Below the pieces are notes generated by a model. The model worked only from the letters and a program-made list of their open reading frames with translations, was not told where the DNA came from and did not search any database. A program made the translations under genes and the position numbers. Shown in pieces: positions 7,192-7,282 of a DNA stretch of 64,000 nucleotides; position 1 is the stretch's first letter; each line of letters starts with the position of its first letter. Origin of the DNA: a phage; NCBI GenBank assembly GCA_019326865.1, contig GCA_019326865.1_4101.1; one strand, 5' to 3'.

Positions 7192-7282
7192 GGAAGGGTG
7201 GCAGAGCGGTTGATTGCACTCGCCTACTAAGCGAGCAAGTGTTAGAAATAACGCTTCGTGGGTTCAAATCCCACCTCTTTCG
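7192..7282 (+). tRNA. type II (long variable arm) tRNA, Ser-like; anticodon loop reads ACT
   Basis: Acceptor GGAAGGG/CTCTTTC (G-U pairs), D-region GTGGCAGAGCGGTT, anticodon stem CTCGC/GCGAG loop CTACTAA, 7-bp variable stem, T-arm GTGGG-TTCAAAT-CCCAC. Confidence 0.6.

Follow-up and report, generated by a model that had tools for sequence, protein, structure and literature searches.

A tRNA gene at positions 7192–7282 of the window, the 64,000-nucleotide stretch of phage DNA that we analysed, specifies a type II tRNA-Ser with the anticodon ACU. Cellular tRNA genes hardly ever have a wobble adenosine (A34) that is not subsequently changed to inosine. We consider it likely that the gene gives a working serine tRNA of the phage in which position 34 is left as adenosine, so that it is dedicated to reading the serine codon AGU. 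The gene is intact and conserved, lies behind a promoter close to consensus, matches the most frequent serine codon of the phage and recurs in other phages. The window region is 97–100% identical to the Asteriusvirus jumbo coliphages 121Q, UE-S1, JP4, G17 and Sharanji, an identity that assigns it to Asteriusvirus as a 121Q/PBECO4-like jumbo coliphage. The sequence of the tRNA is itself already known, annotated since the 121Q record, and is no new discovery, because GenBank labels the orthologue tRNA-Ser(act) in the records of 121Q, G17 and Sharanji. JP4 and EJP2, annotated with tRNAscan-SE, list it as tRNA-Ser, and the genome papers for Sharanji, JP4 and EJP2 make no comment on the anticodon. 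What is new is the recognition of this tRNA as conserved, recurrent and running against a textbook rule.

ARAGORN called a tRNA-Ser with anticodon (act) at 7192–7283 on the + strand, and the Rfam tRNA model RF00005 matched 7192–7282 over its full length with 49.9 bits (E = 1e-8; gathering score 29). In the RF00005 alignment, a 5-bp anticodon stem (CUCGC/GCGAG) closes the loop C32-U33-A34-C35-U36-A37-A38, and the variable arm appears as a long insertion. Free-energy folding with RNAfold agreed on the acceptor stem, the anticodon stem-loop and the T-arm, and on a variable arm with an 8-bp stem. An earlier note, made from the letters alone, had described a type II tRNA-Ser with the loop CTACTAA and the anticodon ACU at coordinates that coincide exactly with the RF00005 match. 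It had also allowed for a mis-fold and proposed automated prediction as a check. ARAGORN returned the same anticodon and fold, with no differing assignment, and a mis-fold is excluded because ARAGORN, RF00005 and RNAfold, three independent methods, agree on the loop and anticodon. The elements of the gene are as follows.

7192–7282, + strand: tRNA-Ser(ACU), type II (ARAGORN, RF00005, RNAfold and sequence)
7192–7198, + strand: acceptor stem of tRNA-Ser(ACU), 5′ strand
7201–7217, + strand: D-arm of tRNA-Ser(ACU)
7219–7235, + strand: anticodon stem-loop of tRNA-Ser(ACU)
7224–7230, + strand: anticodon loop of tRNA-Ser(ACU), C32 U33 ACU A37 A38
7226–7228, + strand: anticodon A34-C35-U36 (ARAGORN, RF00005)
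7236–7257, + strand: variable arm of tRNA-Ser(ACU), 22 nt (8-bp stem, 4-nt loop)
7258–7274, + strand: T-arm of tRNA-Ser(ACU)
7275–7281, + strand: acceptor stem of tRNA-Ser(ACU), 3′ strand
7282, + strand: discriminator G73 of tRNA-Ser(ACU)

The acceptor stem (GGAAGGG/CTCTTTC) forms seven pairs, with G-U at 2-71 and 6-67, and the body contains U8, a D-stem GCAG/TTGC with C11-G24, G18-G19 and the T-loop TTCAAAT. All of the cloverleaf tertiary nucleotides U8, A14, G18-G19, U33, T54-T55-C56 and A58 are present, and U36-A37-A38 is the usual context for t6A37. Seryl-tRNA synthetase (SerRS) does not recognize the anticodon and reads instead the long variable arm, G73 and pairs in the acceptor and D-stems, the identity pairs for the E. 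coli enzyme being G1-C72, G2-C71, A3-U70 and C11-G24; type II tRNAs for Leu and Tyr carry A73. The window tRNA has G1-C72, A3-U70, C11-G24, G73 and the 22-nt variable arm. Pair 2-71 is G-U in the window tRNA, whereas the version in EJP2 has G-C, the canonical serine identity pair. The gene therefore agrees with a bacterial-type tRNA-Ser in most tests, the exception being the G-U at 2-71, and charging with serine is predicted. ACU is Watson-Crick complementary to the serine codon AGU and falls outside the canonical serine anticodons (NGA, GCU). A suppressor or recoding tRNA was ruled out, since the codon complementary to ACU specifies serine rather than a stop, in keeping with the serine identity features of the body.

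The gene is preceded by a promoter and followed closely by further tRNA genes.

7153–7181, + strand: sigma-70-type promoter with TTGACT, a 17-nt spacer, TATAAT and an extended −10 TG (11/12 consensus)
7283–7290, + strand: 8-nt spacer CAAATTTC between G73 of the tRNA-Ser and +1 of the next tRNA (from sequence)
7291–7365, + strand: downstream tRNA with anticodon CAT, called Met (ARAGORN, RF00005)
7456–7530, + strand: tRNA-Asn(GTT), third of a conserved Ser-Met-Asn module (ARAGORN, RF00005)

The promoter ends 10 nt 5′ of tRNA position +1. Its cassette, TTGACTAAATAGTTCAGTRCTGATATAAT, stands also at 6671–6699 in the window, before another tRNA gene, and before tRNAs in CRJP21 and Klebsiella phage RaK2, and homology to every relative begins at the promoter, at 7142–7153. 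We rejected the promoter as evidence of orthology with the RaK2 Ser(TGA), as the same cassette stands 5′ of many tRNAs. Near-consensus sigma-70 promoters (11/12) recur on the + strand at 6671–6699, 7032–7060 and 7153–7181; two of them share the cassette, and the promoter-like site at 7032–7060 falls within an ORF (6872–7141). No promoter-like site was found in the 8-nt gap at 7283–7290, and the tRNA-Ser and the CAT tRNA are probably co-transcribed as a dimeric precursor. The 3′ end of the tRNA-Ser(ACU) gene does not encode CCA; 3′ trimming and post-transcriptional CCA addition would therefore be required. A search of the 64-kb window for a cca homologue found none, and the relative Sharanji encodes a CCA-adding enzyme (gp419).

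According to ARAGORN, the cluster in the window runs Gly(tcc) 4194, Arg(tct) 5098, Gly(tcc) 6709, Ser(act) 7192, Met(cat) 7291, Asn(gtt) 7456 and Thr(tgt) 9046, with no second serine tRNA or serine-tRNA remnant across the 64-kb window. The order Ser-Met-Asn is also found in 121Q, G17, JP4, UE-S1 and CRJP21. The CAT tRNA (7291–7365, + strand) is Met by call, its orthologue is given as tRNA-Ile in the ph0011 record, and ATA codons occur at ~19 per 1000 in the window; it may be a tRNA-Ile2 of the lysidine type that decodes AUA. The counterpart of this gene in G17 and Sharanji is 90 nt long, with homology ending 10 nt into the gene, and the CAT tRNA gene of KP13-7 is apparently interrupted 3′ of the anticodon. 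The tRNA-Gly(tcc) at 4194–4265 (+ strand) is called by ARAGORN and has an annotated equivalent in 121Q, but scores below the RF00005 gathering score, which the second Gly(tcc) (6709–6782) passes; the copy at 4194–4265 may be atypical or degenerate. Directly 3′ of tRNA-Arg(tct) lies a 174-aa ORF (5203–5727, + strand) with NUMOD4 and HNH_3 domains of the homing-endonuclease type, and Ser(ACT) in JP4 and UE-S1 immediately follows an HNH endonuclease gene, which suggests that endonucleases have shuffled the tRNA cluster. Interspersed among the tRNA genes are five small paralogous ORFs of 54–59 aa that start MTH(Q/K/E)EW(L/M) (3988–4164, 4509–4688, 5762–5926, 5923–6087 and 6084–6248, + strand), three of them in tandem with overlapping stop and start codons.

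Comparison with the relatives points to a maintained gene. The tRNA is identical over 92 nt in 121Q and G17, and comparison with G17 and Sharanji gave 0 substitutions in the 92-nt tRNA versus 8 in 68 flanking nt (Fisher p = 8e-4). EJP2 carries a Ser(ACT) version that is ~69% identical to the window gene. Its acceptor stem differs (AGAAGGT/ACCTTCT) and its variable arm is unrelated, each retaining its pairing, and its anticodon arm, CACTCGCCTACTAAGCGAGCA, is identical to that of the window tRNA. Three metagenomic contigs hold further Ser(ACT) genes with different compensating stems. Judged from these sequences, the tRNA-Ser(ACU) gene is under selection, as indicated by its diverging flanks, the EJP2 version, its own promoter and the compensating stems.

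The relatives differ in which AGY serine tRNA they carry. ACT is present without GCT in 121Q, UE-S1, Sharanji, G17 and others, and GCT without ACT in PBECO4, BF17, CRJP21, related Salmonella phages and RaK2. Both occur ~900 bp apart in JP4, Turkey3, ph0011 and WPEC3, and EJP2 likewise has both, its ACT gene being its own diverged version. Ser(GCT) occupies the Ser-Met-Asn slot in CRJP21 and BF17, and HNH homing-endonuclease genes adjoin different tRNAs in different genomes, the pattern of a tRNA cluster that is, by comparison of these genomes, a mosaic. No phage in the database covers 80% of positions 4100–7200 of the window. A "tRNA-Ser anticodon AGA" of Pectobacterium phage CBB was considered as a second A34 serine tRNA and rejected, being apparently a type I tRNA with an insertion for which ARAGORN makes no call. 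This gene, CBB_tRNA15 (L005:402–520), is annotated at 119 nt and seems to have a ~45-nt insertion in the anticodon region, possibly an intron.

To survey viruses at large, we scanned IMG/VR independently of the D-arm for CTACTAA combined with type II spacing and a T-arm, obtaining at least 120 matches. ARAGORN called a type II tRNA-Ser(act) in 91 of the 120 matches listed, giving at least 91 genes. Among these listed matches, G73 is present in 83/91 genes, G1-C72 in 89/90 and G2-C71 in 73/90, and all seven acceptor pairs are intact in 90/91. The listed genes have at least 42 distinct acceptor strands and at least 39 distinct anticodon stems, with Watson-Crick covariation at four inner pairs, and most lie in AT-rich contigs. 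Abundance was gauged from an unbiased neighbour sample of 698 tRNAs adjoining Ser(UGA)-type genes, which held GCT 15 times and ACT once, and from the supplementary table of a 2019 virus tRNA survey, which has 11 "act" versus 291 "gct". In that table "act" is the commonest split-box ANN anticodon (aca 5, ata 4, atg 3, others 1). Ser(ACU) is a minority form, a few percent of viral AGY serine tRNAs, yet recurrent. This recurrence contradicts a review that calls split-box ANN anticodons "universally missing" and, for phages as well, "prohibited" (PMC8007984). ACT and GCT share a cluster in 2/91 versus 15/120 cases (p = 0.009) among the matches listed, a mutual avoidance that fits two alternative solutions for one codon box. 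Among ARAGORN calls, the viral contigs with Ser(ACT) (L139–L258) contain other non-Arg A34 tRNAs, namely Asp(atc) 3, Thr(agt) 3, Leu(aag) 3, Tyr(ata) 2 and Cys(aca) 1. These candidate calls, which may include false positives, hint that some phages carry several U-specific A34 tRNAs.

Searches for a cellular source gave no match, either in 5,426 complete E. coli genomes (blastn with the tRNA) or in 185k representative bacterial and archaeal genomes (exact anticodon-arm search), and a host origin was rejected on both. The D-arm of the window tRNA agrees with the phage Ser(UGA) type in 16/18 positions versus 12/18 for the GCT type, and the difference from a GCT body therefore far exceeds one base. 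A G34-to-A point mutation of a neighbouring Ser(GCT) was likewise rejected, given the widely different bodies, the UGA-type D-arm and the lack of a close GCT parent in a matched sample. In 120 viral contigs sampled by the window D-arm, the anticodon was TGA in 110 and ACT in 0. In that matched sample of unique viral serine tRNAs (131 TGA, 111 GCT, 73 ACT), no ACT gene has a relative with another anticodon at ≥90% identity, and of the 73 ACT genes 55 have a TGA gene and 18 a GCT gene as their closest non-ACT neighbour, a count in which some TGA genes come from the same contigs as ACT genes. SerRS ignores the anticodon, and a duplicated serine tRNA would therefore be free to change it. We infer that Ser(ACU) is probably a remoulded Ser(UGA)-like body.

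The codon usage of the phage favours AGU. Among the serine codons in 90 long ORFs of the window (14.6k codons), AGT ranks first (331 occurrences, 22.6 per 1000, 32% of serine codons) and AGC occurs 47 times; at about 7:1, this is the most skewed NNY pair in the window. An E. coli K-12 sample (12k codons) has AGT at 7.4 and AGC at 12.7 per 1000, a ratio of 0.58, so that the phage uses AGU about three times as often as its host and reverses the AGU/AGC preference. The comparison of AGY usage between phage and host, which had been proposed as a check, thus shows AGU favoured by the phage and AGC by E. coli K-12. The accompanying suggestion in the earlier note, that the anticodon is a phage adaptation to codon usage, fits the counts and the reversed host preference, and the anticodon may be such an adaptation. 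Sister phages that have Ser(GCU) show just as strong a skew, about 5–7:1 in CRJP21 (GCT only) and RaK2 (GCT). Given this equal skew, the AGU bias characterizes the whole lineage and predates the difference between ACT and GCT; G34 is evidently adequate for the same AGU-rich usage.

Across viral contigs, those with ACT exceed matched GCT contigs in AGT frequency (18.4 vs 13.6 per 1000, p = 5e-4) and in the AGT share of serine codons (0.29 vs 0.22, p = 3e-4), and have a lower G+C content (0.381 vs 0.399, p = 0.015). After control for G+C, the effect of ACT on the AGU:AGC ratio in viral contigs was 0.03 ± 0.09, and the extra AGU use of ACT carriers is largely explained by their lower G+C. An AGU:AGC skew in ACT carriers beyond the general U/C bias had been expected and was not found across viral contigs. 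The data support the view that A34 appears where AGU demand is high and are silent on A34 over G34.

How the tRNA would decode can be estimated from related systems. The tRNA-Ser(GCU) of E. coli and of PBECO4, CRJP21, BF17 and RaK2 resembles it in being type II, in serving the AGY box and in having the loop CU-NCU-AA; in CRJP21 and BF17 it also shares the Ser-Met-Asn slot and the promoter cassette. Its G34 reads AGC and AGU, whereas the A34 of the window tRNA should be restricted to AGU. How the window tRNA behaves is at present best estimated from an engineered M. jannaschii ACU tRNA, which has the identical loop CU-ACU-AA and depends on the same host for translation and modification (Schmitt, Tittle and Fisk 2024, PMC11066159). 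The window gene is natural, whereas the engineered tRNA is artificial; its body is archaeal and of type I, and an orthogonal synthetase loads it with tyrosine. With this differing body and amino acid, the orthogonal tRNA in E. coli gave 9.4% at AGU, 0.36% at AGG and values below detection at AGC and AGA; its loop equals that of tRNA-Arg2 apart from the anticodon, and cDNA sequencing revealed no inosine (PMC11066159). By analogy with these published experiments, the window tRNA would carry no inosine and read U specifically.

The only A34 tRNA of E. coli, tRNA-Arg2 (ACG to ICG), has the loop of the window tRNA except at position 36; it has G36 and serves a four-codon box in which inosine is harmless, whereas the window tRNA has U36. 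Natural tRNAs with unmodified A34 are the tRNA-Thr(AGU) of Mollicutes and the A34 Leu and Thr tRNAs of Leuconostocaceae. They likewise have a wobble A, are non-Arg and belong to AT-rich genomes, but they serve four-codon boxes in which loose reading is harmless, whereas ACU belongs to a split box (Ser AGY/Arg AGR), where it is safe only with strict U reading. To our knowledge, the window Ser(ACU) is unlike all natural A34 precedents in serving a split box. The tRNA cluster of T4, which includes tRNA-Ser(UGA) and others, is tight and transcribed as multimeric precursors, and some of its tRNAs have no encoded CCA and need trimming and a CCA-adding enzyme. Its anticodons favour the A/U-ending codons of an AT-rich phage, as do those of the window cluster; we know of no AGY serine tRNA and no A34 tRNA in T4. 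The remark in the earlier note that bacterial A34 is normally confined to inosine-modified tRNA-Arg matches the literature (PMC11066159, PMC8007984).

From this evidence we infer expression, processing, charging and any fitness benefit as follows. Host RNA polymerase would start early at the gene's own strong sigma-70 promoter and transcribe tRNA-Ser(ACU), probably along with the tRNAs 3′ of it. The tRNA would be released by RNase P and 3′ trimming, and CCA would be added by the host enzyme or by the phage's own, which is encoded in relatives. Host SerRS would charge it through the variable arm, G73 and the acceptor and D-stem pairs. On the ribosome, ACU and AGU would form three Watson-Crick pairs, and AGC, AGA and AGG would barely be read. 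The phage uses AGU heavily, about six times as often as AGC, and the only AGY decoder of the host reads this codon by G-U wobble; the phage tRNA would therefore top up capacity for its commonest serine codon. The mechanism is probably ordinary codon supply.

Other accounts of the gene differ in how they treat its integrity and its wobble base. It is scarcely credible that the gene is a non-functional relic, either a tRNA pseudogene or the product of a one-base sequencing or assembly error. Such a reading would suit an anticodon type said to be universally missing (PMC8007984) and the two G-U pairs in the acceptor stem, but genomes from several countries, each sequenced independently, share the gene unchanged, and it shows purifying selection relative to its flanks, has a consensus promoter and varies in a compensatory manner between lineages. 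Deamination of A34 by host TadA or a phage deaminase, giving an ICU anticodon that reads AGU, AGC and AGA, is very improbable. The loop differs from that of the TadA substrate tRNA-Arg2 (CUACGAA) at position 36 only, yet that position is U and departs from the TadA motif U33-A34-C35-G36; because the defining G36 is absent, the window tRNA is not a TadA-type inosine tRNA. E. coli TadA also left an ACU tRNA with the same loop unmodified (PMC11066159), and ICU would insert serine at AGA arginine codons, which occur at ~8 per 1000 and are served by the phage tRNA-Arg(UCU). A "tRNA-specific adenosine deaminase" listed in the genome paper of the relative Sharanji would supply a phage enzyme, but the protein is a T4-type dCMP deaminase. 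We rejected this candidate A34 deaminase (gp491, WNN14772.1; L014:7356–7835, − strand), whose best solved relative is PDB 1vq2 (E = 6e-35, full length). It matches Pfam dCMP_cyt_deam_1 and scores 30 bits with the TadA model against a cut-off of 150, and its label is likely a mis-annotation propagated in the phage group. A search of the 64-kb window found no deaminase zinc motif, and among the matches listed, viral Ser(ACT) genes have no excess of deaminase-fold ORFs nearby (4/91 vs 2/120, p = 0.41), the few ORFs concerned encoding generic CDA-fold proteins. Three viral contigs with Ser(ACT) (L150, L200 and L232) have ORFs of 124–135 aa with the zinc motif HAE...PCxxC and weak or generic dCMP_cyt_deam_1 matches.

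The remaining alternatives accept an unmodified A34 and differ on why it is there. Under neutral drift, the tRNA works as an AGU reader and A34 is no better than G34, ACU being tolerated and fixed by mutational bias or cassette shuffling in an AT-rich phage with a mosaic tRNA cluster, whose rare AGC codons are covered by the host. We think this account unlikely, although neutral AT-driven substitution is a serious rival for why the wobble base is A34. The sister phages with Ser(GCU) and the same codon usage speak for it, as do the equal AGU:AGC ratio of ACT and GCT contigs once G+C is controlled, the more AT-rich composition of ACT carriers and the mosaic cluster with its HNH endonuclease genes. 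It does not lead one to expect that JP4, Turkey3, ph0011, WPEC3 and EJP2 keep both GCT and ACT, which is surprising if the two are equivalent. Nor does it sit well with the identical anticodon arm of two versions only ~69% identical overall, or with the sampled ACT genes, none of which has a GCT or TGA relative at ≥90% identity, as in old maintained lineages rather than fresh point mutants. Evasion of host defence, in which a replacement serine tRNA with A34 escapes an anticodon nuclease or toxin that recognizes the host GCU loop, seems to us distinctly less probable still. Phage tRNAs commonly have loop changes predicted to block anticodon nucleases (PMC10264068), several neutralize tRNA-cleaving defences, and the coexistence of GCT and ACT in some genomes and an early, strong promoter would suit this role. 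On the other hand, we found no nuclease targeting tRNA-Ser(GCU) in the literature, and Ser(gct) is described as the non-targeted serine tRNA in mycobacteria (eLife study, PMC10264068). The loop of the window tRNA is canonical except at position 34, and a tRNA that reads only AGU could not replace AGC decoding. We therefore retain a functional serine tRNA with unmodified A34, dedicated to AGU, as the likely reading.

The window gene and its at least 91 diverse viral relatives mean that at least one split-box ANN anticodon, Ser ACU, is maintained in nature. A bolder proposal is that Ser(ACU) forms a widespread, overlooked phage class that breaks the ANN split-box rule and is kept for a reason beyond bulk codon supply; we regard this as doubtful. 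If it were true, the reason might be a U-specific private channel for AGU, resistance to a factor that attacks the G34/GCU loop, or a modification of A34, and bodies that resemble Ser(UGA) more than Ser(GCU) would suggest that duplicated serine tRNAs have had their anticodons remoulded repeatedly. A culturable E. coli phage offers a natural system for studying unmodified A34 decoding, its avoidance by cells and what is gained from a U-only reader. In annotation pipelines and models of codon adaptation for phages, a Ser(ACU) call should not count as an error.
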